In this document: one piece after another, positions 6,618-50,995 of the stretch | Layout: each line of letters opens with the position of its first letter | How positions within the stretch are numbered: the stretch's first letter is position 1 | Assembly (NCBI GenBank): GCA_965279515.1 | Contig: CBDIID010000003.1 | Span: 3,072,001 to 3,136,000 of the forward strand | Length of the DNA stretch: 64,000 bases | Source: Turneriella sp. | GTDB lineage: Bacteria; Spirochaetota; Leptospiria; Turneriellales; Turneriellaceae | Direction of reading: 5' to 3' | Notes under the pieces: model-generated | Told to the model about the DNA's origin: nothing | What the model saw: only the letters and a program-made list of their open reading frames with translations | Database searches by the model: none | Position numbers and translations under genes: made by a program

Positions 6618-6618
6618 A

Positions 6619-7371: not shown

Positions 7372-7381
7372 TTGCATCTCC

Positions 7382-8880: not shown

Positions 8881-8947
8881 AAATTACAATTCGCCACAAT
8901 ACGTGAGAAGGCAAGTATTTATACGTGGTTGGCGAAGATGTTCGGCG

Positions 8948-9370: not shown

Positions 9371-9417
9371 CCCCCCTCGGTAGAGCCGCGGGGGACCCCG
9401 TCAACCGTATAAAGCAC

Positions 9418-9454
9418 TCAGGTTATACCCCCCATTCGGGTGGGTATAACCTGA
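9418..9454. promoter_or_regulatory. 13-bp perfect inverted repeat in a divergent intergenic region
   Basis: TCAGGTTATACCC (9418-9430) and GGGTATAACCTGA (9442-9454). Confidence 0.6.
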
Positions 9455-9499
9455 AGATTACGCTATGCGAATGCGGAATTTTTCAAACCGTAACTCGTC

Positions 9500-14374: not shown

Positions 14375-14415
14375 AGATTGGATGTGCAAGAGCCGAAGTG
14401 GCGCTGCCGCGCAAC

Positions 14416-34999: not shown

Positions 35000-36277
35000 T
35001 CAATAGCCGTACTTTTCGCCCCAGAGTTTTTTCAATTGCTCGCGGATTTCGCGTTCGCGGGCGTTATTGCCGGGTTCAAAAAGTTTCGTGCCCATAATCT
35101 TTTCGGGCAGATATTCCTGCGCCGAAAACCCTCCGGCTTGATCGTGTGAGTATTGGTAGTCTTTGCCATAACCGATATCTTTCATGAGCTTGGTCGGCGC
35201 ATTGCGCAGGTGCAGCGGCACGGGCAAATTACCGGTTTCGCGTACCACATTCTGCGCGGTGTTGATCGCCGCATACGAGGCGTTGCTCTTGGGTGAGGTC
35301 GCAAGATAGGTCGCGGCTTGGGACAGAATAATGCGTGCCTCGGGATATCCGATCATATTCACGGCCTGGAAGCAGGTCGTGGCGACGACGAGCGCGGTCG
35401 GGTTGGCATTGCCGATATCTTCAGAGGCCGCAATCACCATGCGCCGCGCGATAAACAGCGCGTCTTCGCCACCCTCGATCATGCGCGCGAGCCAGTAAAC
35501 CGCGCCGTTGGGGTCGCTGCCGCGGATCGACTTAATGAAGGCGGAGATGATGTCGTAGTGGTTGTCGCCCGCCTTGTCATAGAGCACGGGATTTTGCTGC
35601 ACGAGTTCGAGAACTTTCGCGTCGGTGATTTCGATCGGGTCGCCGGCGATGCCATCGATCACGAGCTCAAATACATTGAGCAAACGCCGCGCATCGCCGC
35701 CCGAAAGTCGGAACAGGGCTTCGGTTTCGGCGAGCTCAATTTTCCGCGTTTTGAGAAAGCTGTCCTTTTGCATCGCGGTAGTTAATAACGAGAGTAAATC
35801 CGCCTCATCGAGATTTTTCAGAATGTAGACCTGGCAGCGCGACAAAAGCGCAGAAATCACCTCAAACGAAGGATTTTCCGTTGTGGCGCCGATGAGCGTG
35901 ATCTTGCCGGTCTCAACCGCGCCGAGCAGCGAATCTTGCTGCGCCTTCGAAAAACGGTGGATCTCGTCGATGAACAGCACGGGCTTCTCGGTAAAGAGCC
36001 CGCCGCCCGAGGCCTTCTCGATCACCTCGCGGATATCTTTGACACCCGAGTTGATCGCGCTCAGCGCATAGAAGGGGCGCTTCAGCTCGCCCGCAAGAAT
36101 ATGCGCGAGCGTCGTCTTGCCAACGCCGGGCGGCCCCCAGAGAATAATCGAAGGCAAATTCTTACTCTCAACCGCGCGGCGCAGCACAGCACCCTCGGCG
36201 ACGAGATGTTTCTGCCCGACATAATCGGCCAACGACTTCGGCCGCATCCGTTCGGCGAGGGGAATTGTGGATTTCAT
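35000..36277 (-). CDS. rarA: Replication-associated recombination protein A (AAA+)
   Basis: PLAERMRP, WGPPGVGKTT, DEIHRF, GATTENPSF, SAFIKSIRGSD, ASEDIG. Confidence 0.95.
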   Translation of the reverse strand: MKSTIPLAERMRPKSLADYVGQKHLVAEGAVLRRAVESKNLPSIILWGPPGVGKTTLAHILAGELKRPFYALSAINSGVKDIREVIEKASGGGLFTEKPVLFIDEIHRFSKAQQDSLLGAVETGKITLIGATTENPSFEVISALLSRCQVYILKNLDEADLLSLLTTAMQKDSFLKTRKIELAETEALFRLSGGDARRLLNVFELVIDGIAGDPIEITDAKVLELVQQNPVLYDKAGDNHYDIISAFIKSIRGSDPNGAVYWLARMIEGGEDALFIARRMVIAASEDIGNANPTALVVATTCFQAVNMIGYPEARIILSQAATYLATSPKSNASYAAINTAQNVVRETGNLPVPLHLRNAPTKLMKDIGYGKDYQYSHDQAGGFSAQEYLPEKIMGTKLFEPGNNAREREIREQLKKLWGEKYGY

Positions 36278-36522
36278 TTTGGTGTTGAGAATGACCGTAA
36301 CGGTATTTTCATCTGACCCCTCAAGCTATCTATTGTCAATTTTTCAGGGTTTCTCTCGGTTTTAGGCTGGAAGCCGCTGGGGAATTATGTCGCATTTTGG
36401 GTAATAGCCGATGGCAGAGTCTGTTTTTAGGGCAAATACGATTTGACGTAAGGTTCTCGCGGTTCGGTCGTGGGAAAATGTCGCCGAGTATTCAGGTTAG
36501 CGTGTGCATTAAGGAATTTTTG

Positions 36523-36807
36523 ATGCCACTTGTCAGAGATGTTTTGGTGCTGGGAAAGCAGGCGGCTATTGGGCCCGCTGCGATGAGCAGGGCATTGAAT
36601 TTTTTGCATGCCCGGAAATTTACATTGCTCAGCATCGAGGATGAAGTTATTGAGGGTGTTTTCATCAGGGATACGTTGCTCAAAAAAATTCCAGAACAAA
36701 AGGTGATTAGTCTCATATTGCAGCATGTTAAACCGACGATGCAGGAATCGGAGATTCTTAAGATCGATCTGGATGTAGAACTGCGTATAGAGGATGTATT
36801 CCTGTGA
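36523..36807 (+). CDS. Small hypothetical protein
   Basis: AAGGA RBS before ATG 36523; GTGA overlap with the next gene. Confidence 0.6.
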   Translation: MPLVRDVLVLGKQAAIGPAAMSRALNFLHARKFTLLSIEDEVIEGVFIRDTLLKKIPEQKVISLILQHVKPTMQESEILKIDLDVELRIEDVFL

Positions 36808-37874
36808 CACAAGCAGCGCTTTTGACGGAAGTTAAAAATTGTGTTTGCGTGAAATTGTTTGATCGTGTCGCCGAATGCACTGAGATTGAAGGTGACAGGG
36901 AATCTACACACTTTGTTGTGATGGCCGAGCACGGATTTGATAAAGTCGTCGCGCCTTCTGATTTGCCCCGCTTTCCGAATTTCCGGGTTTTTGCAGATAT
37001 CAAGCCGCGGAGCAAATGGGCCCTGCTGGAAAATTTCGAAGATGTAGAGAAAATCGATCGCTCAGGTTATTGCGGTGTAGTGCATTTTAACAAGAGCCAG
37101 GGGCGCCACGTGCTCTACCGGTTTCTTGATGAGGAAGCGATGTCTGTTGCCGCGCGGGTTGAGAAGAGTTACGAAGATTACCTGGCCTTTCTCGCCCACG
37201 AGTTCCGCAATGTTGCGCATGGAGTTCTGAAAATCAGCGAGGTTAATTTTATGAAATTCAATCCCGCTGAATTTTTGAAGGTCGTGGGCGAAAAAATAAC
37301 GCAACTTACCTCGGTTTACCTTGTACCGGACAGGAAAATGCAGTATGCCTCTGAGGCTTCGTATGCCACGAAGATTTCTTTGGCCCGATTCGTAAGAAAT
37401 GCCCAATTGATTGTGGAGCCGTCCGCAATCGCCGCTGGCGTGAAAATCTCAACCTTTGTTTGCGCAAGGGCGCATGAAAAAATCACGATCTCCGAAACTC
37501 ATCTTCTTCAAGCGCTCGTGAATTTGCTGCTGAACGCGATACGCTATGCCGGTTTTCATGCCAATGTGCACCTTAATGCCCGGCTGGAAACCGATGGGTC
37601 TGGTCTGGAAAGCGTATGCTTCGCCGTTTCGGACGATGGCCCCGGCATTATCGAAGCTGAACGCGAGAAAATATTCGAGAAGAAGTACCGCGGACGCGAG
37701 TCCAGTAGCGTCGCCGGCTCGGGTTTGGGCCTATCTATTGTGCAAGATATGGCGCACAGGGTTGGTGGTGAGTGCGGCGTAAATTCACCCCCTGAGCTGT
37801 ACCTTGTACAACCCGGAAAAGGTGCGGAATTCTGGATTCGTGTACCGTTAGCCCGGGATTTCAAGGTTGCTTAA
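36804..37874 (+). CDS. Soluble sensor histidine kinase
   Basis: AHEFRN H-box, NLLLNAIRY, DDGPGI, GSGLGLSIV; no obvious TM segment. Confidence 0.85.
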   Translation: MTQAALLTEVKNCVCVKLFDRVAECTEIEGDRESTHFVVMAEHGFDKVVAPSDLPRFPNFRVFADIKPRSKWALLENFEDVEKIDRSGYCGVVHFNKSQGRHVLYRFLDEEAMSVAARVEKSYEDYLAFLAHEFRNVAHGVLKISEVNFMKFNPAEFLKVVGEKITQLTSVYLVPDRKMQYASEASYATKISLARFVRNAQLIVEPSAIAAGVKISTFVCARAHEKITISETHLLQALVNLLLNAIRYAGFHANVHLNARLETDGSGLESVCFAVSDDGPGIIEAEREKIFEKKYRGRESSSVAGSGLGLSIVQDMAHRVGGECGVNSPPELYLVQPGKGAEFWIRVPLARDFKVA

Positions 37875-38061
37875 ATCTCTGCAGAACCTCTTCTAATCGC
37901 AGCGTCTGCATGGCGCCGACAGCATTCTCCCAGCGCCCCTCTGCACACAGCCCACTCACACCCGCAGCCTCATACGCCGCCTGCGCGGCAGCAATACAGG
38001 CATCGCGCACCACCGCAGCCAGCTCATCAGGGCTCAACTCTGATCGTAGTTTACCGGGCAT
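37861..38061 (-). CDS. Small conserved hypothetical protein (66 aa) whose start lies inside repeat copy 1
   Basis: MPGKLRSELS...VRDACIAAAQAAYEAAGVSGLCAEGRWE; I recall this motif from a small family often mis-annotated as acetyltransferase; backbone-like high GC. Confidence 0.7.
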   Translation of the reverse strand: MPGKLRSELSPDELAAVVRDACIAAAQAAYEAAGVSGLCAEGRWENAVGAMQTLRLEEVLQRFKQP

Positions 38062-38090
38062 GGGGTAGGGACGCGGGTGGAATCGGCGCG
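38042..38090 (+). repeat. Cassette repeat copy 1
   Basis: GATCGTAGTTTACCGGGCATGGGGTAGGGACGCGGGTGGAATCGGCGCG. Confidence 0.9.
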
Positions 38091-38121
38091 TAAAGATTGT
38101 TAGGGGGAGCCGCATAGATAT

Positions 38122-39048
38122 ATGAAAACACTTCAGATTCATGATTTTTCAAAAATTTTGGATAAATTTGATCGAAAGGATAACATGTCTTCACCAAAGA
38201 TATATGATACTGCAAAAGCTGAAAATTTCAAGAACGAATTCGAAAATTTAGCGAAGACTCTCCAAGCCGATAAATACTGCGTAGTTGGAATCGATATACT
38301 TGGTTATAGTCAATATGAATTTGAAACTCAGGCAATAATTCCACCAGTATTTAAAATACTATTGGATGAGGTCCTCAGACACCTTGTGGGTGCTGAATAT
38401 TTTCTGTTTCATTCTCACACAGAGACTGATCTGCGAAAAAAATTTATTTCTACCGGGGATGGTGGATTCTTGGTTTTGGAAAATCCTCTACAAGGTTTGA
38501 TATGTGCCCTTAAATTTGCCTCGATTCTCCATTTGTTTAATTCTTATAGTTTCTATCCAAGTATGCGCAAGTATTTAGGGGAACTTAAGGTTCGTTATTG
38601 TTTAACCTATAACTCAGTTTTTGAGTTTGAAAGTAACTTCTTTGGATCGGGCCTTATAAACAATGCTCGAATTATGTCACGCGATAAGCTTGACCGCTGT
38701 CTAATGGATAAGGATTCATATACTTGGTTCCTCGAAAAAATAAATGGTCTTGAATCTTTGCAAATATTTGACATGAAAGAAATTTCCGTAAAGCTCGGTA
38801 TTCCGATTCCTAGCCTACCGAAGGGGCCTTTTAGCTACTCAGGAATATTGAACACGCCTTTTGACAAGCCTCGGCTGCGCGCCATAGTGACCCAGAAAAT
38901 CGGATCGGTAAAAGCTAAGGCTCAATTGCTCGACGTATACAACCTGTTCGTCCAAGTATCAACCACTTATCTGGAGGAAACCACTCATGAGCCAGACAAC
39001 TATGTTGTGAATTTAGGAAATCTCAATACGGTCGGTATCGCCGATTGA
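38122..39048 (+). CDS. Soluble class III nucleotide-cyclase-like protein (cassette cargo)
   Basis: VGIDILGYS, STGDGG and FGSGLINNARIM correspond to the cyclase D, GD and G..VN.A.R motifs. Confidence 0.65.
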   Translation: MKTLQIHDFSKILDKFDRKDNMSSPKIYDTAKAENFKNEFENLAKTLQADKYCVVGIDILGYSQYEFETQAIIPPVFKILLDEVLRHLVGAEYFLFHSHTETDLRKKFISTGDGGFLVLENPLQGLICALKFASILHLFNSYSFYPSMRKYLGELKVRYCLTYNSVFEFESNFFGSGLINNARIMSRDKLDRCLMDKDSYTWFLEKINGLESLQIFDMKEISVKLGIPIPSLPKGPFSYSGILNTPFDKPRLRAIVTQKIGSVKAKAQLLDVYNLFVQVSTTYLEETTHEPDNYVVNLGNLNTVGIAD

Positions 39049-39176
39049 TGCAACGTTTGGCGCAACTTTCCAACCATGAAACAGATACGAATATTTTTTT
39101 TGGGATGCTCATTCTAAGCTGCAAAGATTCAAATGAGAACTTAACTACGCCAAAACAAAGTAAAACAAGCAAGCTT

Positions 39177-39201
39177 GCAGGTGGAATTGGCGGGGGAGGG
39201 G
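39177..39201 (+). repeat. Cassette repeat copy 2 (right half only)
   Basis: GCAGGTGGAATTGGCGGGGGAGGGG, identical to the right half of copy 5. Confidence 0.85.
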
Positions 39202-39205
39202 CGAC

Positions 39206-39499
39206 ATGAAATATCAGCTAGTGCTTCAATTTCCCGAGCCAAGGGAAGATCCTTTCGATTTTATTGAGCGCCTTAGCGAAGAGATTGAGGCAAATCTGAA
39301 GCATGTCTCAGATTTTGATGGGCATGATATTGGTCAGGGTGAAATTAATTTTTTCATTCGCACGGATTGGCCTGAAAGAGAATTTGAAAATCTCTTTAAC
39401 CTATTAGATACGAAAGAATTAAGAGCTGGCTATCGAGATTTTGATGAAGACGAGTATAAAAGTTTGTTTCCCCACGGCTCAAAATTTCAAGTTAAATGA
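39206..39499 (+). CDS. Small acidic conserved hypothetical protein (cassette cargo)
   Basis: MKYQLVLQF...DGHDIGQGEINFFI...LRAGYR; the GGAGG RBS lies within the repeat. Confidence 0.8.
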   Translation: MKYQLVLQFPEPREDPFDFIERLSEEIEANLKHVSDFDGHDIGQGEINFFIRTDWPEREFENLFNLLDTKELRAGYRDFDEDEYKSLFPHGSKFQVK

Positions 39500-39549
39500 A
39501 ATAGTCGCAGGGAGGGGGTAGCGTCAGCAATGGCCTGAGATAGACATGT

Positions 39550-39996
39550 ATGGCAAAATATACATATAGCGAGTATCCACCAACCTTAGCCGAGGCCAGC
39601 ATCCCATATGCGGAATTTTTGAAGACGCAAAATTTACCGGGCCAGATAATTTGGGTAAGGCCATCACAAATTTTAATTTGGCGCCGAACCTGTTATGTAA
39701 AGAATCCAGGTAAGAACAGCTCAGAAGTTAACGATTTGTATAAAAATAACTATAAACGCTTTGGAGCACGGGTTGATGGTCTCGGACCTTTAGATAATCA
39801 AGTAGTAGCTCAAATTACAATGCCATTAAATGATCTGACAGCCCAATATCGTCAGGTCGGGACAAGTCACTTAGGCTACAGTATGCTAGTTGAGCCCATT
39901 AGATGCAAAGCTGTGCATTCCAATCTATTCTGGCGCGTTTTGCAGATGCTTGGGGCTCGCCATTGGGAAGAAGAGCCCAACCGCTTGCTGATGTAA
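39550..39996 (+). CDS. Hypothetical protein (cassette cargo)
   Basis: 148 aa AT-rich ORF. Confidence 0.65.
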   Translation: MAKYTYSEYPPTLAEASIPYAEFLKTQNLPGQIIWVRPSQILIWRRTCYVKNPGKNSSEVNDLYKNNYKRFGARVDGLGPLDNQVVAQITMPLNDLTAQYRQVGTSHLGYSMLVEPIRCKAVHSNLFWRVLQMLGARHWEEEPNRLLM

Positions 39997-40057
39997 GATC
40001 GAGGCACGACTACAATCAATACGCGCCAGTAGCGGAGAGCTCACGCAGAGTTTTTCC

Positions 40058-40114
40058 AATCGTAGTTTACCGGCCACCGTGTGTGGGCGCGGGTGGACTG
40101 GCGGGGGGGGGGGG
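40058..40114 (+). repeat. Cassette repeat copy 3, with a G12 tract
   Basis: AATCGTAGTTTACCGGCCACCGTGTGTGGGCGCGGGTGGACTGGC followed by 12 G. Confidence 0.92.
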
Positions 40115-40141
40115 CGAAACCCCCAAGAAAGATAGAACAAC

Positions 40142-40390
40142 ATGAGTGAAATAATTCAAGCCCATCAGTATTCAACTAATAACAGAAAATTAATTGAAAA
40201 TAGCTCACTTTGTGGTTGTTATTATTGTAAAAAAATATATTCAGCGGTAGAAGTTACAGATTACTTAGCGGAAGGCTCTGGTACTGCGCTTTGTCCGAAA
40301 TGCGGTATCGATTCTGTTTTACCTGATAAGAGCGGCTTTCAAATAACAAAGGATTTTTTGAAGTCAATGCATGCGTATTGGTTCTCATAG
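40142..40390 (+). CDS. Small Zn-ribbon-like conserved hypothetical protein (cassette cargo)
   Basis: CGCYYC and TALCPKCGIDSV motifs. Confidence 0.8.
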   Translation: MSEIIQAHQYSTNNRKLIENSSLCGCYYCKKIYSAVEVTDYLAEGSGTALCPKCGIDSVLPDKSGFQITKDFLKSMHAYWFS

Positions 40391-40404
40391 GAATAGGATA
40401 TTCC

Positions 40405-40454
40405 GATCGTGGTTTACCGGCCGCGGGACGTGGGCGCGGGTGGATTGGCGGGGG
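40405..40454 (+). repeat. Cassette repeat copy 4
   Basis: GATCGTGGTTTACCGGCCGCGGGACGTGGGCGCGGGTGGATTGGCGGGGG. Confidence 0.92.
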
Positions 40455-40498
40455 CGTCAGATTCGGCGGCTCAATTCCAGTAACCAGGGAGGTTGGTT

Positions 40499-41344
40499 TT
40501 GTCAGAAAAATACATTCAGAAAAATGACCCAAATTTAGTCCGTGAAGTCGGTATTTGCCGGGATATCCTGGAATCCATGCGACAAAGCGGATTGAAAGAT
40601 TTAGCAATCACCAATGTGGACTTCAATTTTACCTCCGATGATAAAGAAGAGCTGAAGGGTCTACAGGCCGACTTGGCTGCTGAATTCAAATTTAAAGTCG
40701 ATTACCTGAAATCCATCGCAACAATACGTCGCGAATATGAGCTTTCCATAGAAATGCAAGGTGTTATCATCAGCGATGACCTTTTAATTTTTCTCATTGG
40801 CTACCTATTCACGAAAGCCTTGAACCATAACTGCTGTTTCGGTGACTGGGGCGCAAGCGTCTCAGATAAAATCTATGACTTAAAGGTGGCGACGAAGGAT
40901 GCATTACAAGATAAAGGGTATGAGTATTATCATGGACAACGATTTTACCTCGCTTACCAGTCTTTTTATCTAGCCAACTTAAAAAAAGCCACTGCCGAAC
41001 TGGAGTTCAATCTGGGATGCCTTAAGTATGATTATGGTTTTCGGGGTGATGCAACCGACCATTTTACAAATGCCATTACTATAGATCCGAAAAATCTAAC
41101 GCCATATCTCAACCGCGGCGTTGCTTATTACGATATGCAAGAATATGAAAAAGCCATTTCAGACTATCAGATGGCAACGCGCGATGAGCCCAAGAACCCT
41201 AGCCCGTACATCAATTTGGGGAATGCTTATATCAAGCTCGGAAACAAGGACTTGGCAATCCAAAATTATGACAAGGCGATTGCCTTAGGCGCTGAAGATG
41301 GGCCGAAGATTAAGGCCCATGGACTTAGCCAAATTCAGCTTTGA
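40499..41344 (+). CDS. TPR protein with a possible RraB-like N-terminal domain (cassette cargo)
   Basis: GGAGG 6 nt before TTG 40499; VDFNF...FGDWG; TPR motifs YLNRGVAYY and YINLGNAY. Confidence 0.78.
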   Translation: MSEKYIQKNDPNLVREVGICRDILESMRQSGLKDLAITNVDFNFTSDDKEELKGLQADLAAEFKFKVDYLKSIATIRREYELSIEMQGVIISDDLLIFLIGYLFTKALNHNCCFGDWGASVSDKIYDLKVATKDALQDKGYEYYHGQRFYLAYQSFYLANLKKATAELEFNLGCLKYDYGFRGDATDHFTNAITIDPKNLTPYLNRGVAYYDMQEYEKAISDYQMATRDEPKNPSPYINLGNAYIKLGNKDLAIQNYDKAIALGAEDGPKIKAHGLSQIQL

Positions 41345-41904
41345 TGAACTCAATCCGTATTGAAACAAAGAGATTGATCCTACGCACCTGGCAGCGCGAA
41401 GATCTGAGTGATTTCGCGGCTATGAACGCAGATCCCGATGTGATGCGGTTTTTCCCGGCGCCGCTGACGGCAAACGAATCCGGGTTGTTATTTGAAAGAC
41501 TGATTCGCCATTTCGAACTGAAAGGCTTCGGTCTATTTGCGCTTGAACTGAAATCAAGGCCAGGTTTGATTGGATTTACTGGCTTATCAACGGTGACCTT
41601 TACCGCACCGTTTGGCGAAGATATTGAATTAGGGTGGCGCATCATGCGCGAATACCAAGGGAATGGTTATGCAACCGAGGCCGCAAATGCGGCAAAGAAT
41701 TACGGGTTCGATGTATTGGGTCTCAAATCGCTTGTGGCATTTACTGTGCCAACGAACTTGCCATCCCGAAGGGTCATGGAGAAAATCGGCATGGTTCATA
41801 ACCCTGACGATGATTTTGATCACCCGAGAGTCCCTGAGCATCATCCGCTAAGGCGGCATGTGCTGTATAGAGTTGGGGCAACGAGTTCGGCTATTTCGCT
41901 CTGA
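41344..41904 (+). CDS. RimJ/RimL-type GNAT N-acetyltransferase (cassette cargo)
   Basis: IETKRLILR, ELGWR, QGNGYATEAA, NLPSRRVMEKIGM, HVLYR; its TGA lies at the left edge of repeat copy 5. Confidence 0.92.
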   Translation: MNSIRIETKRLILRTWQREDLSDFAAMNADPDVMRFFPAPLTANESGLLFERLIRHFELKGFGLFALELKSRPGLIGFTGLSTVTFTAPFGEDIELGWRIMREYQGNGYATEAANAAKNYGFDVLGLKSLVAFTVPTNLPSRRVMEKIGMVHNPDDDFDHPRVPEHHPLRRHVLYRVGATSSAISL

Positions 41905-41961
41905 TCGTAGTTTACTGGCTACGGGGTGTGGGCGCAGGTGGAATTGGCGGGGGAGGGGGGG
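41903..41961 (+). repeat. Cassette repeat copy 5
   Basis: GATCGTAGTTTACTGGCTACGGGGTGTGGGCGCAGGTGGAATTGGCGGGGGAGGGGGGG. Confidence 0.92.
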
Positions 41962-41980
41962 AAAGCCTCGGGAAGATATT

Positions 41981-42397
41981 TTGAGACTAAATATTCATAC
42001 AGTTTACATTCATTTTGTTGATGGCGTTGAGGCATTTCGGCCAGTCAAAGCTTTGGTTGATTTGCAAGGTTGCTCACAGATATTACCAACTGCAGATTAC
42101 GACCCAACAGATAGGACAGAATTATGGTCTTTCAGACCTGGGGATAAGGTTCTGGTAAGAAATCAAGAATTCGGTAAAGACAAGACGATCGGCGATCTTG
42201 CTTACGCGCCATATAGAGAAGCCGAACAAATAAAGGACCTGAATTGGTTCCTCTATAATTTAGTGTTAGAAAAAATCCAGCTCGGCAAACCGATTCAAGA
42301 ATCTCACGCTGATTTTATTAACCAAATTAGAAACGATTTGGCACAGGGCATTTTTCATTATCCGGTCATCAAGGAAAAGATTCAGGATTTAGGATAG
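41981..42397 (+). CDS. Hypothetical protein (cassette cargo), TTG start inferred
   Basis: AT-rich ORF with FRPVKA and ELWSFRPGDKV motifs. Confidence 0.65.
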   Translation: MRLNIHTVYIHFVDGVEAFRPVKALVDLQGCSQILPTADYDPTDRTELWSFRPGDKVLVRNQEFGKDKTIGDLAYAPYREAEQIKDLNWFLYNLVLEKIQLGKPIQESHADFINQIRNDLAQGIFHYPVIKEKIQDLG

Positions 42398-42463
42398 TAC
42401 CTTGAACCGGGGCCTTAAGATGACAAAAAATGCCGCGATTACTGTGGTGGCTGGCTCCCGCCC

Positions 42464-42516
42464 GATCGTAGTTTACCGGACACGGGATATGGGTGTGGTG
42501 GGATTGGCGGGAGGAG
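42464..42516 (+). repeat. Cassette repeat copy 6
   Basis: GATCGTAGTTTACCGGACACGGGATATGGGTGTGGTGGGATTGGCGGGAGGAG. Confidence 0.88.
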
Positions 42517-42551
42517 CGTTGACCCCCAGCAGCCATACTAGGAGAATATTC

Positions 42552-43079
42552 ATGCAAGAATCAACTGAAGTTAAGATATTAGCTGGTGGTCCGCGAGCAG
42601 CAGTTATTAGCATTTTGACATTGGGCTTACTTGGAATATTCCTAAGATTCGCTTCGAGTAACTTTAATCCTCAAAACGAAATACCAGAAATTATGTTCCG
42701 CATCATTCTTCTTGCGCCATTTGCTTGGCTATTACTTAAACCTTCAAAGATCGCCTATCAAGGTGTTTTAGCCGTATTCGGAGTAAATTTACTGATCAGT
42801 TTAATAATCACCATCCAGGCTCCGACGCCGATAATCATCGTCCCTTTAATAATGCAGACAGTATTAGGCATTTATCTTTTCTCATCTTACGCACAGGCTT
42901 TTAGTACGAAGTCAAAAAATACGGTTAAGCGCATTTATGCGCAGGCCCGGGAGGCTGAATCGAAAAAGCAGTATTTGGAAGCTAAGAATCTATACGCGCA
43001 GGTAGTGACAGAGTATCCTGGCACCTTGGAGGCCGAACTCGCTGCGGAATGTTTGCAACATTTGCCGCCAACCGTTTGA
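42552..43079 (+). CDS. 4-TM membrane protein with a C-terminal TPR-like motif (cassette cargo)
   Basis: AGGAG RBS before ATG 42552; four hydrophobic segments; AKNLYAQVVTEYPGTLEA. Confidence 0.72.
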   Translation: MQESTEVKILAGGPRAAVISILTLGLLGIFLRFASSNFNPQNEIPEIMFRIILLAPFAWLLLKPSKIAYQGVLAVFGVNLLISLIITIQAPTPIIIVPLIMQTVLGIYLFSSYAQAFSTKSKNTVKRIYAQAREAESKKQYLEAKNLYAQVVTEYPGTLEAELAAECLQHLPPTV

Positions 43080-43117
43080 GTCTTCTAAGCTTAATTGGAA
43101 AGATTGCTAACAGAGAA

Positions 43118-43918
43118 ATGAAATTCTTAGTTTTGATAATTCTGATCATAATGCAAGTGCCAGCCTGCTCGAAACCACCTAAAACGGAGCCATTCGAGTG
43201 CAAGTGCTATTACAGATTTAGCTCGAATGACGTGAAACAAGTCCCTTTCGATCCCGACAAGAGTCACTCACTGTACGAAAAGCAAGAGTATGATAAACTT
43301 ATGGATTTGTGTCTTGCGTATGAAAAGCCCAGCCGTGAAGCGATTGGATGGCTCGCCGAAGCTTCCTTTGCGATCGCAGAGATAGGAGCTGGAAATGGGG
43401 TGCCCAATGGTTCACCGGAGATATACCTTGATAGCGCGTCTGATGAAATAGCTCACGATTATAGCCATGCAACAGAACGCCCCGCTCATTATTGGCCCAA
43501 GGAAATACGGTTCCGCTATGGTGCTTTAGCCATTTGCGCAACATCGTGTTATGCAGAGACAACAAACCCTGAGGACGAAAATTATTCTGAATACCAGAAA
43601 AGGCTACTCGTAGTCTTAATACGAACCAAGCAGTATGGTGAAATTCACAATTTCATAAAATCTGCAAAAGCATCGGGCATGTTGAAGAGATTGGATGCAA
43701 CTTTTTTTCTGGACCTTGGTTCTCAATTCATTAAGTTAAGTGACCTTATTGAAGGAGTTCGATACATTAAATTCCTGCATAAACACATTCCACAACAGAA
43801 AAATCAATTAACTTATTGGCGTAAGTTATTCTTATACGCGGCGGAGCATGACCAAAGACTCGGCGTTATGCAAAGAAATCATGCAAAATCAGAAATCGAT
43901 AAAACATTTCCGCAGTAG
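43118..43918 (+). CDS. Hypothetical lipoprotein (cassette cargo)
   Basis: MKFLVLIILIIMQVPA-C leader. Confidence 0.7.
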   Translation: MKFLVLIILIIMQVPACSKPPKTEPFECKCYYRFSSNDVKQVPFDPDKSHSLYEKQEYDKLMDLCLAYEKPSREAIGWLAEASFAIAEIGAGNGVPNGSPEIYLDSASDEIAHDYSHATERPAHYWPKEIRFRYGALAICATSCYAETTNPEDENYSEYQKRLLVVLIRTKQYGEIHNFIKSAKASGMLKRLDATFFLDLGSQFIKLSDLIEGVRYIKFLHKHIPQQKNQLTYWRKLFLYAAEHDQRLGVMQRNHAKSEIDKTFPQ

Positions 43919-43940
43919 CCAATCTGATCGGGCTCGTTTT

Positions 43941-43996
43941 GATCGTAGTTTACTAACCACACGGTATGGGCGCGGGTGGATTGGCGGGGGAGAGGG
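43941..43996 (+). repeat. Cassette repeat copy 7
   Basis: GATCGTAGTTTACTAACCACACGGTATGGGCGCGGGTGGATTGGCGGGGGAGAGGG. Confidence 0.92.
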
Positions 43997-44006
43997 TAAG
44001 ACTCGA

Positions 44007-44420
44007 ATGATAAATCTCCTGAAATTCCTAAAGAGACTTTGGCCAAAGGAGAAAGAACTTTGGACTGAAGAAAAGAGCGAGGCTAAACAATGTCTCCATT
44101 GCGGTCGGCTCGGTTCGGGCTATCGAATAAGCTCCCCCGGTCAACTTGCGGAGACAATATTAATTCTGCAAGAGATGCTTAACGACCAAACGCTATCAGA
44201 GGTGCCAAATCTGAAAGGCATGGTTCAGAAGCACAACAAACCATTTGGCCGCGTGTCTGCACGAGGAAAGTGGGAGGATACGCTTATCTACGATTTCGAA
44301 TGTAAGCACTGCCATGATTTTTTTCATTTGGGAGTAGATACCTACCATGGAGGCGGTGGTAGATTGAAGAGAATAGGTCCAGAAATCCAGTATGATAGAT
44401 ATGGTAATACGCTTGCTTAG
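44007..44420 (+). CDS. Hypothetical protein with two CxxC motifs (cassette cargo)
   Basis: CLHC; FECKHC...LGVDTYHGGGG. Confidence 0.72.
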   Translation: MINLLKFLKRLWPKEKELWTEEKSEAKQCLHCGRLGSGYRISSPGQLAETILILQEMLNDQTLSEVPNLKGMVQKHNKPFGRVSARGKWEDTLIYDFECKHCHDFFHLGVDTYHGGGGRLKRIGPEIQYDRYGNTLA

Positions 44421-44433
44421 AATGCTCATTTAC

Positions 44434-44484
44434 GATCCGGGTTTACCCGGCACGGCGCGTGGGCGCGGGCGGAATTGGCGGGGG
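44434..44484 (+). repeat. Cassette repeat copy 8
   Basis: GATCCGGGTTTACCCGGCACGGCGCGTGGGCGCGGGCGGAATTGGCGGGGG. Confidence 0.9.
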
Positions 44485-44503
44485 AAGCGGAATTACATAA
44501 ACT

Positions 44504-44776
44504 ATGAACCCAAATAAAATGCCGGTTCTGAGTTTTTGGCCGCGCTTCTTTTTGGATTTATTGGCAGCCGTTACGATGACTATTGTTGGTATGTGGGGAA
44601 CATACCTGTTCTCACTTTCTGACTTCTGGCCCTCTCTTCGCCATCCTGGCGGGGGGCAACACAGTGACCTTAGGGATTTAGTTGAAAACCATTACTGGCT
44701 TATAATTTTAATCGGTACAGTCACTCTTACTTATTATCAACAAGCCAGAAGGCGAAAATCAGGTACGCAGAAATAA
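44504..44776 (+). CDS. Small 2-TM membrane protein (cassette cargo)
   Basis: Two hydrophobic segments and a basic tail. Confidence 0.6.
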   Translation: MNPNKMPVLSFWPRFFLDLLAAVTMTIVGMWGTYLFSLSDFWPSLRHPGGGQHSDLRDLVENHYWLIILIGTVTLTYYQQARRRKSGTQK

Positions 44777-44863
44777 TTGTGCAACTTTGATGCATGTAGG
44801 GTGATGTGCCAAGCCTCCCGCACAGTAGCGGTAACCTTGGCCGGGCGCCTAGACCACTTTTTC

Positions 44864-44896
44864 TTGACGATGCGCTTGTTGTACAATAAATTGTAC
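44864..44896 (+). promoter_or_regulatory. sigma70-type promoter and operator of yefM-yoeB
   Basis: TTGACG (44864) - 17 bp - TAAATT (44887); palindromes TTGTACAA (44879-44886) and GTACAA-taaa-TTGTAC (44881-44896). TGTACA is the E. coli yefM operator core. Confidence 0.75.
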
Positions 44897-44899
44897 CTA

Positions 44900-45148
44900 A
44901 TGGAAGCCGTATCTTACAGCGATCTCCGGAAAAATCTCAAGAAGTACATGGATGATGTATACACAGGCCATTATCCCCTGATCATTACGAGAAAAAATGA
45001 TGAGAATGTTGTCATGATTTCTTTAGATGAGTTTAACGCCTTACAAGAAACCAACTATCTCCTGGCATCAGACGCGAATGCAAAACATCTCAAAAAATCT
45101 ATATCACAGCATAAATCCGGCAAGTTGAAACAAATCAAGATTGCTTGA
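44900..45148 (+). CDS. yefM: Phd/YefM antitoxin
   Basis: YSDLRKNLK, PLIITR, VVMISLDEFNALQETNYLL..ANAKHL. Confidence 0.93.
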   Translation: MEAVSYSDLRKNLKKYMDDVYTGHYPLIITRKNDENVVMISLDEFNALQETNYLLASDANAKHLKKSISQHKSGKLKQIKIA

Positions 45149-45405
45149 TGAATGTTTTATTTACGGACGCCGGTTGGCAGGACTACATTTACTGGCAAAC
45201 GGAAGATCGAAAGACTTTAAAGAGAATCAATGATCTTATTAGAGATATCAAACGATCGCCTTATGAAGGCATCGGAAAACCAGAACCGTTGAAGCATCAA
45301 CTACAAGGGTATTGGTCCCGCAGAATTGATCCGGAACATCGGCTTGTTTACCAGGCTGAGGGCAATAAGACACTGATTATCATTGCCTGTCGTTATCATT
45401 ACTAA
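45148..45405 (+). CDS. yoeB: Txe/YoeB toxin
   Basis: WQDYIYWQ, GIGKPEPLK, WSRRID.EHRLVY, CRYHY. Confidence 0.95.
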   Translation: MNVLFTDAGWQDYIYWQTEDRKTLKRINDLIRDIKRSPYEGIGKPEPLKHQLQGYWSRRIDPEHRLVYQAEGNKTLIIIACRYHY

Positions 45406-45449
45406 GTCAGCACTGCGGTCAGCGGCAGCGAGTCGAGGAGTATGGCACC

Positions 45450-45501
45450 AATCGGCATTTCACGGCCACGGGGTGTGAGCGCGGGTGGAATTGGCGGGGG
45501 G
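45450..45501 (+). repeat. Cassette repeat copy 9
   Basis: AATCGGCATTTCACGGCCACGGGGTGTGAGCGCGGGTGGAATTGGCGGGGGG. Confidence 0.88.
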
Positions 45502-45567
45502 ACGTAAATCCAAGAGCTATTTTCCTGAAATATTGCCGCGAGTCTGAAAATAGTCGACATTCCATAC

Positions 45568-45586
45568 GTATATTGTAAACATATAC
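45568..45586. promoter_or_regulatory. Probable brnTA operator
   Basis: GTATAT-N7-ATATAC inverted repeat abutting ATG 45587; TCGACA -35-like box at 45554. Confidence 0.55.
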
Positions 45587-45886
45587 ATGATAATTCCTGA
45601 TTTTGAAGCCGTGGAAGGCTTTGAATGGGGCAAAGGGAATGTAGACAAAAATTATGATAAGTACCAGGTTACAAATCTTGAATGCGAAGAAATTTTCATG
45701 AACGAACCGCTGCTGATATTTTCAGACGATTTGCACTCAAATAACGAAGACCGATACACTGCCTTTGGCAAAACAAACCACTTTCGGTTTCTCGCATTGA
45801 CTTTCATTCTAAGAAAGAACCGAATTCGTGTTGTTTCAGCGCGCGATATGTCAGCGAAGGAGAAAAAGCAATATGAAAACACTTAA
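45587..45886 (+). CDS. BrnT family toxin
   Basis: GFEW..GN..KN, ECEEIF, HS..EDRY..FGKT, IRVVSARDM. Confidence 0.9.
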   Translation: MIIPDFEAVEGFEWGKGNVDKNYDKYQVTNLECEEIFMNEPLLIFSDDLHSNNEDRYTAFGKTNHFRFLALTFILRKNRIRVVSARDMSAKEKKQYENT

Positions 45887-46148
45887 AAAAATGCCCAAAT
45901 TCAAGACTGAGGATGCAGAGAGAGAATTTTGGGCAAAGAACGACTTTACTGACTTTCTGGATTTTTCGAAAGGCATCAAGGCTAAATTTCCCAACCTAAA
46001 ACCTTCGACCCAGACCATTTCGCTGCGATTGCCGGAGTCACTACTGACCGATATCAAAGTTTTAGCGAACAGGCAAGACGTGCCTTACCAGTCCTATATC
46101 AAAATGCTTTTAGCGGAGAAGATTGCGGAAAAGCTTCGTAAGCGATGA
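45873..46148 (+). CDS. BrnA/CopG-like antitoxin
   Basis: PKFKTE..EREFW, ISLRLP, DVPYQSYIK. Confidence 0.9.
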   Translation: MKTLKKMPKFKTEDAEREFWAKNDFTDFLDFSKGIKAKFPNLKPSTQTISLRLPESLLTDIKVLANRQDVPYQSYIKMLLAEKIAEKLRKR

Positions 46149-46191
46149 TTTAGGGCCACAGCATTCACCAATCTCGATCCAATTCGCTTCC

Positions 46192-46223
46192 CATCGTAGT
46201 TTACCAACCTAGGGGCGAAGGCG
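46192..46223 (+). repeat. Cassette repeat copy 10 (decayed, terminal)
   Basis: CATCGTAGTTTACCAACCTAGGGGCGAAGGCG aligns without gaps to the left part of the consensus. Confidence 0.78.
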
Positions 46224-46345
46224 AAGAGGTCGCCATCGCTTTCAAGTGTTCTCCCTTTGTTTTTGACATGCTGCGCGATCAAAAGGGCTTCCGGCCCGCT
46301 CCGTATCTGGCCTCGCGGCAACGTCGAGCTTAACAAACTCATTTC

Positions 46346-50620: not shown

Positions 50621-50995
50621 ATGGTAAGCACAATAATACATGCCCAAAAAGAATGGGAAGTTATCTTCAATGAGGGCAAAAACTGGCGTATCGGTATCTA
50701 TCGCCCTAAATACCGCGGCGCAGCGGAAATCCATGAACTGGAACAGCACACCTGCCCCGAGTCGTTTCTGCTGCTTGAGGGCGAGCTGACGATGCTCTAT
50801 CGGCAGCCGGACGGCTCGCTGGCGGAAAAACAGCTACGGCCCATGGAGCTGACGACCTTTACCGAGCCGCATGCGGGCTTTTCTCCCGATTTGTCAGGTG
50901 TTGCTTTTGTCGTCGAAAATGCTGCGTTCGAAACTAGTTATACAGATATCCAGACGCAGGCAGTAACGCGAACGGTTCGCGTCGGTCCCGCTTAA
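50621..50995 (+). CDS. Cupin-like hypothetical protein
   Basis: EQHTCPESFLLLEG...H...VVEN. Confidence 0.6.
   Translation: MVSTIIHAQKEWEVIFNEGKNWRIGIYRPKYRGAAEIHELEQHTCPESFLLLEGELTMLYRQPDGSLAEKQLRPMELTTFTEPHAGFSPDLSGVAFVVENAAFETSYTDIQTQAVTRTVRVGPA

Follow-up and report, generated by a model that had tools for sequence, protein, structure and literature searches.

The window analysed here, the whole stretch of 64,000 nucleotides from Turneriella sp., contains an array of eight low-GC units bounded by a direct repeat of ~58 nt, of which there are nine complete or nearly complete copies and a half copy (Table 1). The repeat reproduces the 5′ end and upstream region of a conserved 66-aa gene, a relation overlooked in the preliminary description of this locus. 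As a tentative explanation, held with a little less than even confidence, we propose that small circular cassettes without an integrase were inserted one after another, by site-specific Campbell-type recombination, at the 5′ end of that gene and so built up the array. The array suggests a candidate undescribed way of stacking gene cassettes.

Table 1. Features of the array and its surroundings (positions in the window).
Feature	Position	Strand	Remarks
rarA (MgsA), left anchor	35000..36277	-	MgsA_C E 2.4e-70; 78-88% aa identity in 4 congeners
1.58-kb insert (136-aa ORF, histidine kinase)	36278..37855		Flanked by 8-nt direct repeat TGAAATCC
Conserved small gene, 66 aa, motif LCAEGRWE	37861..38061	-	Proposed target gene of the array; no Pfam or NCBIfam match
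Repeat copy 1	38038..38095	+	Host-left flank, core and right arm (attL-like); contains small-gene ATG, antisense, 38059-38061
Unit 1 ORF, 308 aa	38122..39048	+	No Pfam, NCBIfam, PADLOC or PHROG match
Repeat half copy	39177..39201	+	Right arm only; 25/25 identical to 41934-41958; ATG of next ORF 4 nt on
Unit 1 ORF, 97 aa	39206..39499	+	
Unit 1 ORF, 148 aa	39550..39996	+	Homologues absent from 150 further genomes of the class
Repeat copy 2	40054..40110	+	Full
Unit 2 ORF, 82 aa, Cys-rich	40142..40390	+	phrog_30788 (unknown function), E 3.4e-21
Repeat copy 3	40401..40457	+	Full
Unit 3 TPR protein, 283 aa	40493..41344	+	TPR_1 E 6.4e-17
Unit 3 GNAT acetyltransferase	41341..41904	+	Acetyltransf_3 E 3.2e-34
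Repeat copy 4	41899..41956	+	Full
Unit 4 ORF, 138 aa	41981..42397	+	TTG start chosen 3′ of repeat
Repeat copy 5	42460..42516	+	Full
Unit 5 ORF, 175 aa, membrane-like	42552..43079	+	
Unit 5 ORF, 266 aa	43118..43918	+	
Repeat copy 6	43937..43993	+	Full
Unit 6 ORF, 137 aa	44007..44420	+	
Repeat copy 7	44430..44487	+	Full; variant CCGGGTTTACCCGG
Unit 7 ORF, 90 aa, membrane-like	44504..44776	+	
Unit 7 yefM-yoeB TA pair	44900..45405 (44900-45148, 45145-45405)	+	PhdYeFM_antitox E 5e-22; YoeB_toxin E 6.8e-39
Repeat copy 8	45446..45503	+	Full; variant core ATCGGCATTTCAC
Unit 8 brnT-brnA TA pair	45587..46148 (45587-45886, 45873-46148)	+	BrnT_toxin E 1.8e-16; CopG_antitoxin E 1e-32
Repeat copy 9	46188..46226	+	Exact 13-nt core, ~20 nt that are less alike, and host-type DNA thereafter (attR-like); E 5e-08; 71% over 34 nt
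Conserved 124-aa gene, right anchor	50621..50995	+	Divergent neighbour of the 66-aa gene in congeners G006, G001 and G003

All ten copies listed in the preliminary description are present where it placed them; repeat search gave a 34-nt family of nine copies (38043, 40059, 40406, 41904, 42465, 43942, 44435, 45451 and 46193) and a 51-nt family of eight; the 35-mer given there matched two copies with up to 3 mismatches and had no match in 100 shuffles. The alignment, reported as gap-free over the first ~35 nt, in fact stays free of gaps to about column 42, and all nine copies agree in 11 columns, while the copies as a whole are 61-88% identical pairwise and their identical runs are short. Homology begins at most about 4 nt from GATCG in every copy and reaches GGCGGGGG in the eight full copies, and boundaries this sharp and constant favour site-specific insertion, since ragged ends would be expected from illegitimate or homology-anchored joins. 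Two blocks, ATCG..TTTAC and TGGGCGCGGGTGGAWTTGGCGGGGG, are kept, and the middle between them is variable. This patchy conservation is as expected of predicted protein-binding sites, and it too favours Campbell-type insertion. At its two ends the array has half-sites of attL/attR type: host sequence lies on the left in copy 1 and on the right in copy 9. This is the layout that serial Campbell-type insertion would leave.

The 13-nt core of the repeat, ATCGTAGTTTACC, is the antisense of GGT AAA CTA CGA T, codons 3-7 of the 66-aa gene, and the G-rich right arm replaces the upstream region and start codon of that gene. Homologues of the gene, which carries the Atlas automatic name 'putative acetyltransferase' (score 0.93), are found in 8 of 13 congeners; in G007 and G011 it lies directly 5′ of rarA with an ATGA stop/start overlap, and the two genes form an operon in congeners. 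Since the core is part of the target gene's own sequence and this gene is linked to rarA in congeners, insertion at the 66-aa gene is favoured. The distance from rarA to the 124-aa gene is 0.8, 3.8 and 7 kb in three congeners, compared to 14.3 kb here, and because the spacing differs so much, we regard the spot as hypervariable and count this for insertion. The array is absent from the corresponding spot in congeners. Outside the array, at the same hot spot, the 1.58-kb insert parts the 66-aa gene from rarA.

The eight units hold 15 ORFs, all on the same strand, as counted before. Their AT-richness was likewise borne out: without the repeat, unit GC is 0.36-0.46 and heterogeneous among units, against 0.50-0.56 in the flanks, and the island is compositionally foreign. 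The range of ~0.35-1.5 kb previously given for the units is correct if the half copy is taken as a boundary (347-1498 bp), but not otherwise (347-2016 bp). The earlier view of a repeat-delimited, co-oriented array with cassette-type cargo also stands, as the cargo comprises a GNAT acetyltransferase, whose TGA stop codon falls within repeat copy 4 (CTCTGATCG), two TA pairs and small hypotheticals. We count the GC-heterogeneous units with such cargo for the insertion of cassettes. The units contain no genes for phage functions, transfer or replication, so they were never self-mobile, and this also favours the model. The yefM-yoeB pair is 79% identical in nucleotides to a copy in congener G011 that sits exactly between two attC-type sites, and of 75 Leptospiraceae-like genomes, 13 have homologues of the 308-aa protein (30-39% aa identity), which in 4 of 5 contexts examined lie within attC-type arrays. 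The array cargo belongs to the attC cassette pool of the lineage, as one pair is an attC cassette in a congener and attC arrays of Leptospiraceae-like genomes contain the 308-aa gene. The brnT-brnA pair is 75% identical in nucleotides to a G011 copy outside any array.

The repeat itself is not attC, as had been claimed. It has no hairpin on either side, with fold z-scores of ~0 on both sides compared to -5.9 and -3.0 for two real attC-type sites used as controls, and it lacks RYYYAAC/GTTRRRY ends; identity with attC was rejected on these grounds. An attC profile had no match in the array at E≤50, and profile-against-profile comparison of the repeat with the attC family gave no significant likeness (best E 2.7). 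The expectation that neither attC nor CALIN would be found held for the array but not for the genome, where at least 155 attC-type sites (155 profile matches) lie elsewhere, including arrays of 77 and 53 sites.

A repeat profile run with nhmmer (--max, threshold E≤10) over the whole genome of 4,898,536 bases gave exactly nine matches, all in this array (E 1.5e-13 to 5e-08), so that the earlier failure to see the motif elsewhere in the window now extends to the genome. A dispersed REP-like element was rejected because the repeat is absent from the rest of the 4.9 Mb, and its restriction to one locus was counted for site-specific insertion. When the scan included 60 relatives, as had been suggested, the nine array copies remained the only matches, and no second copy or array was found among those relatives. 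Exact pattern searches gave 98 single, scattered matches and no second array in GTDB representatives, no match in JGI metagenomes, and one single match and no array in IMG/VR; 80 metagenomic loci of the small target gene held no copy of repeat or array. Two runs, made from two samples in the same study and perhaps the source data, have single contigs that cover the array stretch without any difference; in four runs, whose contigs were of low depth and probably source data, neither an excision joint nor a variant came to light. The proposal of a working gene-capture system thus found no backing in the genomes and metagenomes searched, in the form of an excision joint, a variant order or a second array.

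Under Campbell-type insertion, each cassette would carry one double-stranded, non-hairpin att site of ~58 bp upstream of its ORFs. The left block of this putative site, YYYY-RATCGTAGTTTACC, would contain the core, which corresponds to the opening codons of the target gene, and its second part would be the G-rich arm of ~40 nt, whose opposite strand would give the gene a substitute upstream region; in 5 of 7 internal full copies, that strand does supply a GTG start for the target gene. Through a crossover within the core, the cassette would come to separate the body of the gene from its previous upstream region, with host-left, core and arm on the gene-proximal side and core and host-right distally, and later insertions at either resulting site would stack cassettes head to tail. 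The cassettes would be drawn from a gene pool common to the attC cassettes of the lineage. The array would be mobile, and perhaps still active, through an enzyme acting in trans, for which two IntI-like tyrosine recombinases without the IntI-specific insert (C3:2781195-2782127 and C3:2926093-2927214) are candidates.

Several observations count against this model. No recombinase gene lies in or adjoins the array, in agreement with the earlier report of no integrase in view, and no canonical IntI was found anywhere in the genome, none scoring above the family cut-off. The suggested association of a recombinase or HUH gene with the repeat was not borne out, as the genome's four tyrosine recombinases, one serine recombinase and one Y1-HUH gene all lie unlinked to the array, and this lack of linkage weighs against Campbell-type insertion. 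Co-occurrence does not single out the 311-aa candidate either, since its orthologues in 7 of 13 congeners are all in genomes without such an array. The core varies among copies (ATCCGGGTTTACC, ATCGGCATTTCAC), and tyrosine recombinases tolerate non-identical cores in the overlap region poorly, so this variation is unfavourable, as is the lack of evident inverted binding sites around the core. Copy 9 has no right arm and no start codon in the frame of the small gene, and it reads TAG GTT where a start codon would be expected if it were the original upstream region of the gene. This counts against the model as well; either copy 9 has decayed or the native start is further downstream (TTG at 38037). 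The searches that yielded neither a further copy nor an excision joint also speak against it.

It is unlikely, in our judgement, that no dedicated enzyme took part, and that cassettes leave as loops and reinsert, or are taken up by transformation, through RecA-dependent homologous exchange between the ~58-bp repeats, possibly stimulated by a G-quadruplex formed by the G-rich arm; G-quadruplexes have a role in recombination in the case of Neisseria pilE. The lack of an array-linked recombinase is consistent with such exchange, as are the four-G-run motif in 6 of 9 repeats (213 such motifs genome-wide) and the substitutions in copy 5, which move the G-runs yet keep them. Shared stretches longer than the 13-nt core, namely 17 nt of the left block in copies 1 and 4 and 25 nt of the arm in the half copy and copy 4, also point this way. 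However, at 61-88% identity and with short identical runs the copies would be a poor RecA substrate, neutral repeats would decay evenly instead of conserving two blocks around a free middle, and homology alone leaves the shared end nucleotide of the units unexplained.

We give similarly little credence to the possibility that the array is a side platform of the integron-like system behind the attC arrays of the genome, and not a separate system, its 58-nt repeats being double-stranded attI-like or secondary sites of a putative non-canonical cassette recombinase of the lineage. The 155 attC-type profile matches, with arrays of 77 and 53, in a genome yet without an IntI above the family cut-off, would fit such a recombinase, as would the cargo held in common with attC cassettes. 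The core contains GTT, the TTTACC within it is similar to the local attC L box (TTTTACC), and ~19 nt after yoeB resemble the start of a G011 attC; in mobile integrons, IntI1 is reported to recombine cassettes with attI-type instead of attC boundaries (PMC12901181). The attC-remnant alignments, however, lack statistical support, and the profile comparisons already described show no significant likeness. The conserved arm lies 3′ of GTT, upstream of the next ORF, which is opposite to the geometry of attI and attC, and neither giant attC array is headed by a repeat copy. Less probable still is a static island in which the repeat serves expression, as a 5′ leader, RBS or promoter element, and was spread with genes by segmental duplication and gene replacement: the arm is always upstream of the next ORF, ending in GGCGGGGGAGG, this end of the half copy at 39177 serves directly as RBS 4 nt before ATG, and no mobility of any kind was seen, but arm-to-start distances run from ~5 to ~85 nt, several ORFs have their own RBS or promoter, a promoter scan was at chance level (15 found, 16.3 expected), and the left block, the end half-sites and the copying of the antisense host gene start are left unexplained.

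Among known systems, IMEX elements and Xer-dependent pdif modules lack an integrase, lie between short sites derived from the chromosome and depend on host enzymes in trans for their recombination. The present array lies ~0.33 Mb from the cumulative GC-skew minimum and at least 2 Mb from the maximum, and hence not at the terminus, in which it differs from these modules, as it does in a core without an 11-6-11 dif-like palindrome. In the tycheposon islands of Prochlorococcus, tandem cargo arrays lie between partial tRNA repeats, so that, as here, partial target-gene repeats delimit stacked cargo modules in a hypervariable island. Tycheposons, however, have their own tyrosine recombinase and use tRNA genes as targets, whereas the array has no recombinase and the 64-kb window no tRNA gene.

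In Streptococcus thermophilus, ICESt1/ICESt3 exemplify how integrative elements and CIMEs (cis-mobilizable elements) accumulate in tandem where a target gene ends; integrase-less units are kept there between att sites and growth occurs by insertion into an existing att site, as in our model (PMC5704250). CIMEs, however, have arisen by decay of ICEs or IMEs and span many kb; a site usually has one or two of them, located at the gene 3′ end beside an integrase-bearing element, whereas the array has eight units of 0.35-2 kb, never with mobility genes, at a gene 5′ end and with no integrase-bearing partner. In the delta-attI cassettes of mobile integrons, a non-hairpin double-stranded site replaces attC and is still recombined, so that these cassettes are delimited much as the units are (PMC12901181). 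Those sites are recognisable attI1/attI2 fragments acted on by IntI1, whereas our repeat is unrelated to any known attI and the genome has no IntI.

Integron arrays, including sedentary chromosomal integrons and CALINs, differ in having an IntI, attI and Pc, and attC sites with R''/L''/L'/R' boxes and a hairpin 3′ of the cassette ORFs, whereas the site here is ~58 bp, non-palindromic and double-stranded, lies 5′ of the ORFs and has a core that is part of a host gene. They nevertheless resemble the array: in both, small cassettes with unrelated accessory genes (TA pairs, GNAT, hypotheticals), most of them promoterless, follow one another head to tail in a common orientation, each with a single recombination site and none with mobility genes, and the array shares its cargo families with real attC cassettes of relatives.

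A repeat search over 36-48 kb of the window returned a single family of nine in-register copies, together with a right-half copy that is identical at 25 of 25 positions to 41934-41958, and thus recovered all ten direct copies listed in the preliminary description. When the assembly (4,898,536 bases in 3 contigs, with the window at C3:3072001-3136000) was searched with a profile of the nine copies, with filters off and E<=10, precisely these nine array copies were returned, with E values from 1.5e-13 to 5e-08. The motif had been noticed nowhere else in the window, and with nine of nine genome matches inside the array it is not scattered genome-wide like a REP; a dispersed REP, BIME or MITE was rejected on this ground and on the missing hairpin. 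The 35-mer given in the preliminary description, allowed up to 3 mismatches, matched two copies and had no match in 100 shuffles. In the MAFFT alignment, 11 of 58 columns are invariant across all nine copies, and the sole gap is a one-base indel in GGA(A)TTGG. Two conserved blocks enclose a free middle; the left block includes the 13-nt core ATCGTAGTTTACC, and the right arm is G-rich. The homology of every copy starts within about 4 nt of GATCG, which gives a sharp left edge, the 3′ end of the repeat reads GGCGGGGG, and three copies have variant cores. By eye, the sequence GCAGGGAGGGGGTAGCG, located 25 nt 5′ of the ATG of the 148-aa ORF, resembles a decayed right arm (compare GCAGGTGGAATTGGCGGGGGAGGGG). 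If this is a further decayed arm, unit 1, which contains the 308-, 97- and 148-aa ORFs, would equal three former units.

The repeats separate 15 ORFs, all on the + strand, into eight units of 347-2016 bp, three of which hold 2-3 ORFs. With the repeat excluded, GC content of the units is 0.36-0.46, compared to 0.50-0.56 in the flanks, so that the array forms a compositional island, and the same-strand, AT-rich character noted for the 15 ORFs is confirmed. Co-oriented, mostly single-gene, promoterless cassettes of unrelated functions are an integron-like trait of the array. Searches with Pfam, NCBIfam, PADLOC and PHROGs assigned the cargo to TPR, GNAT, YefM-YoeB and BrnT-BrnA families, the rest being unknowns. 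No remnants of transfer, replication or phage genes of ICEs, IMEs or prophages were found in the units with Pfam, PADLOC and PHROGs; a prophage or satellite was rejected, phage-side matches being limited to TA and "moron" families. Joining the flanks in silico gave no ORF across the junction, and a host ORF split by the island was likewise discarded. A minus-strand ORF without family match at the right end of the array is probably spurious. In two runs, taken from different samples of one study, a single contig covers the whole stretch without difference, which makes mis-assembly unlikely, with the reservation that these runs may be the source data. At the level of contigs, four low-depth runs of one study, all identical, showed no joints or variants. 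Positions of the features are collected in the table.

Positions of array features and related loci (window numbering, unless contig C3, CBDIID010000003.1, a metagenome contig or Mb is given)
Feature	Position	Strand	Remark
Repeat copies 1 to 9 (starts)	38043, 40059, 40406, 41904, 42465, 43942, 44435, 45451, 46193	+	in register
Right-half copy	39177-39201	+
Core of copy 1	38043-38055		antisense of small-gene codons 3-7
G-quadruplex-type motifs	38056-38077, 40085-40114, 40425-40454, 41949-41972, 42484-42511, 43968-43996	+	in six repeats
Possible decayed right arm	39506-39525		by eye
Small gene (66 aa)	37861-38061	-	homologues in 8 of 13 congeners
Small-gene ATG	38061-38059	-	within copy 1
8-nt direct repeat TGAAATCC	36269-36276 and 37856-37863	-	borders 1.58-kb segment
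Spacer, 90-aa ORF to yefM	44777-44854		unit 7
yefM-yoeB module	44855-45406	+	unit 7
About 19 nt after yoeB	within 45406-45445		unit 7
ORF without family match	46094-46342	-	probably spurious
124-aa gene	50621-50995
Giant attC-type array 1	C3:85798-169949		77 co-oriented sites, profile matches
Giant attC-type array 2	C3:3734370-3804596		53 co-oriented sites, profile matches
Small attC-type clusters and singles	about 1.909, 2.805-2.809, 2.882, 3.059-3.060, 3.497, 3.631-3.634 and 4.812 Mb
Array of another repeat family	L248 metagenome contig, 5254-14418		includes small-gene homologue

In agreement with the preliminary description, the repeat is not an attC site. It lacks RYYYAAC/GTTRRRY ends, and its only GTT, part of GTTTACC, is close to the 5′ end. 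Single-stranded DNA folds of the nine copies plus right flanks (-12 to +68) gave z values of -1.9 to +0.27, and eight left flanks with the core (-110 to +14), folded on the other strand, gave +0.23 to +1.43. In comparison, control attC-type sites from a Leptospiraceae-like genome and from this genome gave z values of -5.89 and -3.03, with none of 200 shuffles as good in either case, and the terminal AAC...GTT boxes were paired in both folds. An attC profile of this genome returned nothing within the array at E<=50. Attribution of the array to attC sites or a CALIN was therefore ruled out by folds and boxes. The repeat core and the attC L box share a short TTTACC box; for descent of the repeat from a local attC, profile-against-profile comparison gave no significant likeness to the attC family (best E 2.7). 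The window contains no tRNA, and 36-48 kb gave no Rfam match at E<=1; on this basis an RNA target, tRNA or otherwise, and a structured RNA were rejected as well. Xer-dependent elements use a dif-like 28-bp site, and their chromosomal forms lie at the terminus. Cumulative GC-skew extremes fall at about 0.30 and 2.78 Mb, the array at 3.11 Mb, and no dif-like dyad was seen by eye in the repeat alignment; a dif/Xer site (IMEX, pdif modules) was rejected on position and shape.

The cargo has relatives in attC-type arrays. Homologues of the 308-aa protein (30-39% aa identity) were found in 16 other genomes among 400 searched in the phylum, 13 of them in a sister family of 75 genomes (f8), which we read as Leptospiraceae-like because three of four f8 genomes tested have the LipL32 family. 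Of five homologue contexts compared, four are long arrays of 170-190-nt repeats at about 1 kb spacing; the repeats have GCATAAC...GTTATGC at their ends and fold into a strong hairpin. No array of this kind is seen in the fifth context, L159. The f8 arrays, at L157 (G053), L158 (G347), L160 (G309) and L161 (G264), have sites spaced about 0.9-1.3 kb, and in G053 the nearest PF00589 match is about 90 kb from the attC-type array. A BrnT homologue also lies within one f8 attC-type array. The yefM-yoeB module has 79, 74, 72 and 71% nucleotide identity to copies in four congeners, and the brnTA module 75% to a copy in one of them, G011. The G011 yefM-yoeB copy sits precisely between two attC-type sites, in an array of 11 sites in 12 kb. 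No attC-type sites were found at the yefM-yoeB loci of G004 and G007, where the module lies, by eye, just 3′ of a chromosomal gene, nor at the G011 brnTA copy.

Massive matches of the G011 repeat in the present genome led us to build the attC profile from its own copies, and this profile gave 155 matches at E<=1e-3. The repeat is about 200-230 nt long with ends CAGACAAC...GTTGTCTG, and it forms two giant arrays as well as small clusters and singles, several of which overlap low-GC islets of the genome; one cluster is 12 kb before the window start. No recombinase domain was found in 21 ORFs selected at both ends of each giant array. Thus, this lineage is rich in attC-type cassettes without a canonical IntI, and the array shares cargo with that pool but has another junction. 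According to a paper of 2013, integrons were known among spirochaetes in the Treponema clade alone (PMC3607928).

Within unit 7 (90-aa ORF and yefM-yoeB), the spacer in front of yefM can be aligned with parts of the G011 attC-type sites that flank yefM-yoeB, and the stretch after yoeB resembles the G011 attC start at 13 of about 19 positions. These may be attC remnants; we make no such claim, because the attC profile is silent in unit 7 at E<=50. Another repeat family was observed in L248, a metagenome contig. Its repeats, made of tandem GTTCAA motifs and the palindrome AACTTCCACGTTTCGGGAATTCTCGAAACGTGGA, recur about every 0.8-1.2 kb over 9 kb, and two of them enclose a small-gene homologue. 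This is a further cassette-like array, in which the target-gene family itself serves as cargo.

Next to the left end of the array, the minus-strand ORF of 66 aa is a real gene. It has homologues in 8 of 13 congeners and 401 relatives among metagenome contigs, has no Pfam or NCBIfam model, and is automatically named "putative acetyltransferase" in the atlas with a high score. In G007 and G011 it lies directly 5′ of rarA on the same strand, its stop overlapping the rarA start, and in G006, G001 and G003 the 124-aa gene divergently adjoins it about 130-150 nt away. The immediate flank genes proved unfit for synteny, since the NnrU/PEMT-like gene was found in none of 13 congeners and the kinase has only paralogue-level matches there (<=30%). 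We therefore anchored the comparison on rarA (78-88% aa identity in four congeners). The distance from rarA to the orthologue of the 124-aa gene is 0.8, 3.8 and 7 kb in three congeners, compared to 14.3 kb here, which marks a hypervariable spot.

The array is tied to the small gene through its core, which in copy 1 is antisense to codons 3-7 (GGT AAA CTA CGA T); with the ATG also inside copy 1, the G-rich right arm corresponds to the upstream region of the small gene. Copy 1 consists of host-left sequence, core and full arm. In copy 9, the core is exact, the next 20 nt or so are less similar (71% over 34 nt), and DNA of host composition follows, with the arm missing. By eye, the minus strand of five of the seven internal full copies shows GTG-NNN-GGT/AGT/GTG-AAA, a possible substitute start.

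Further observations were made at this locus. A 1.58-kb segment, comprising a 136-aa ORF and a histidine kinase, parts the small gene from rarA and is bordered by a direct repeat, TGAAATCC, one copy of which includes the small-gene stop, and the other the final two bases of the rarA start codon. The repeat resembles a target-site duplication, and no terminal inverted repeats were seen at the segment. In G006 (L139; also in L169), two inverted 10-nt core matches, AATCGTAGTT and CGGTAAACTA, lie about 95-150 nt 5′ of the small-gene homologue, between it and the divergent 124-aa gene, and AATCGTAGTT is antisense to the first codons of the latter. They could be a native attB-like site, or chance. 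In G007 (L137), the sequence ATCGGTATTTACCGTCCACGG, coding for WRIGIYRP in the orthologue of the 124-aa gene, matches 17 of the first 21 nt of the repeat (nhmmer E 0.03 in a 7.4-kb search; 0.21 in G011, L135). This match, possibly due to chance, sits at the far edge of the hypervariable spot, and it gave no significant support to an origin of the repeat in the coding sequence of the 124-aa gene.

The reading we favor, tentatively and at somewhat under an even chance, is that the array arose from serial site-specific insertion of circles of the Campbell type. Each circle would carry one site, YYYY-RATCGTAGTTTACC plus the arm, and the common core (O) would lie within the end of the host gene, so that successive insertions would give the layout B-O-P′ ... 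P-O-P′ ... P-O-B′ and the arm would take over the start and upstream region of the target gene. Elements that integrate at a gene end commonly replace the start or upstream region of their target gene. Both the sharp, constant boundaries and the patchy conservation, with two blocks around a free middle, favor a site-specific enzyme, the former over illegitimate or homology-anchored joins; the circle, the crossover point and the enzyme itself we infer. However, no recombinase is linked to the array, the variant cores of three copies count against serial insertion, and copy 9 has TAG GTT where the native start is expected. The last could be explained either by a decayed start or by a native start at TTG 38037.

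The genome encodes four tyrosine recombinases, with PF00589 matches at 1.40, 2.78, 2.93 and 4.83 Mb, against 3.11 Mb for the array. One is XerD (348.7 bits on TIGR02225, cut-off 329.6), and for a second Xer-type protein the best models, XerC and XerD, are both under cut-off (297.5 and 285.7 bits). Proteins of 373 and 311 aa match the integron-integrase model in two pieces, roughly 2-186 and 215-315, and reach 149-161 bits; this split, which all matches in the genome show, indicates that they lack the IntI-specific middle segment. Best whole-protein IntI scores are 148-161 bits (TIGR02249, cut-off 265 bits), so no canonical IntI was found in the genome above this cut-off. No repeat arrays were found beside the recombinases at 2.78 and 2.93 Mb, and housekeeping genes surround the 373-aa and 311-aa genes. 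PF00589 proteins of 373-410 aa in three Leptospiraceae-like genomes may, as matched by size, be counterparts of the 373-aa protein, and 7 of 13 congeners have an orthologue of the 311-aa gene. A large serine recombinase (570 aa, at 0.70 Mb) and a Y1-HUH protein (166 aa, at 2.62 Mb) bring the recombinases of the genome to six. Thus, the earlier remark that no integrase is in view is borne out, with no PF00589 match near the array. The check proposed there, for a recombinase or HUH gene co-occurring with the repeat, singled out none: no tyrosine, serine or Y1-HUH gene of the genome can be tied to the array by position or co-occurrence. A search for a cognate integrase on a neighboring or related element returned none, and in 61 relatives no canonical IntI appeared at E<=1e-40, a weak negative in that the control genomes could not give a signal.

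The missing enzyme would suit homologous exchange between repeats acting alone, which we consider unlikely. A G-quadruplex-prone arm is also consistent with it. Motifs of four runs of at least three G with loops up to 10 nt occur in six of nine repeats, compared to 213 in the whole genome (about 0.22 per 10 kb per strand), and in copy 5 the G-runs are displaced by substitutions yet retained. Against such exchange, the copies are just 61-88% alike in pairwise comparison, and their conservation is patterned. Alternatively, one enzyme could serve both the attC arrays and the 58-nt repeat, the repeat being its attI-like or secondary site. Cargo common to the array and attC cassettes, the TTTACC box and the attC-like stretch after yoeB agree with this idea, and cassettes bounded by attI are reported to be functional with IntI1 (PMC12901181); the two site profiles, however, share no significant likeness, and we regard a shared enzyme as improbable. 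A static expression module is very doubtful, because, although the arm always lies 5′ of an ORF and at times forms its RBS, arm-to-start spacing ranges from about 5 to 85 nt, a promoter scan stayed at chance level, and the left block and end half-sites are left unexplained.

Relatives of the array were sought with several methods. A covariance model of the repeat (R1), run with stricter filters in 60 relatives, 13 of the same genus, returned nothing, and the repeat was absent at E<=1 from 80 metagenomic loci of the target-gene family. The exact right-arm pattern gave 98 single, chance-like matches in unrelated GC-rich taxa among GTDB representatives, with no locus having two, and one single match in IMG/VR; the core plus arm pattern gave none in JGI metagenomes. 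As exact patterns miss diverged copies, these negatives apply to what was searched and are not proof of absence. A narrow literature search, on spirochaete integrons, integrase-less cassette accretion and tycheposons, found no prior account of the repeat or of such an array.

Of the gene-capture system put forward in the preliminary description, what stands is the array itself: it is real and unique, cassette-like but not attC-based, ends in sites of attL/attR type and has a conserved gene as its anchor; a working system with its own enzyme is a further step, which we infer. Serial insertion of circles may also be extended to a second cassette platform beside the attC arrays, in which each cassette would carry, on its 5′ side, an att site that is double-stranded, forms no hairpin and imitates the start and upstream sequence of a host gene, and a trans-acting recombinase without the IntI insert would stack the cassettes at that gene. 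We consider this possible, though on the whole rather unlikely. Should the repeat prove to be a functional recombination site, it would represent a new site/enzyme pair for gene capture, and a natural case for asking how cassettes move between platforms. If the array is a fossil, the cargo of attC cassettes can still be re-packaged behind another kind of junction. IntegronFinder and similar tools would by design miss such arrays.

Integrons are, to our knowledge, the only well-understood bacterial way to file single genes in an ordered, exchangeable array, with IntI and folded attC sites as their defining features. By function, an integron array is the nearest known system: the present array looks like one and has partly the same cargo, and the genome around it contains over 150 attC-type sites and lacks a canonical IntI. 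In contrast to integrons, its site is unfolded, lies 5′ of the cassette ORFs and includes part of the host gene in which the array is anchored, and both IntI and attI are absent. By structure, the nearest is tandem accretion of CIMEs, which lack an integrase and lie at the end of a target gene (PMC5704250). The array resembles such accretion in that its core equals codons of the small gene and half-sites occupy both array ends. It differs from CIMEs in having eight very small units, never with mobility genes, at the 5′ end of a gene, and no integrase-bearing partner.
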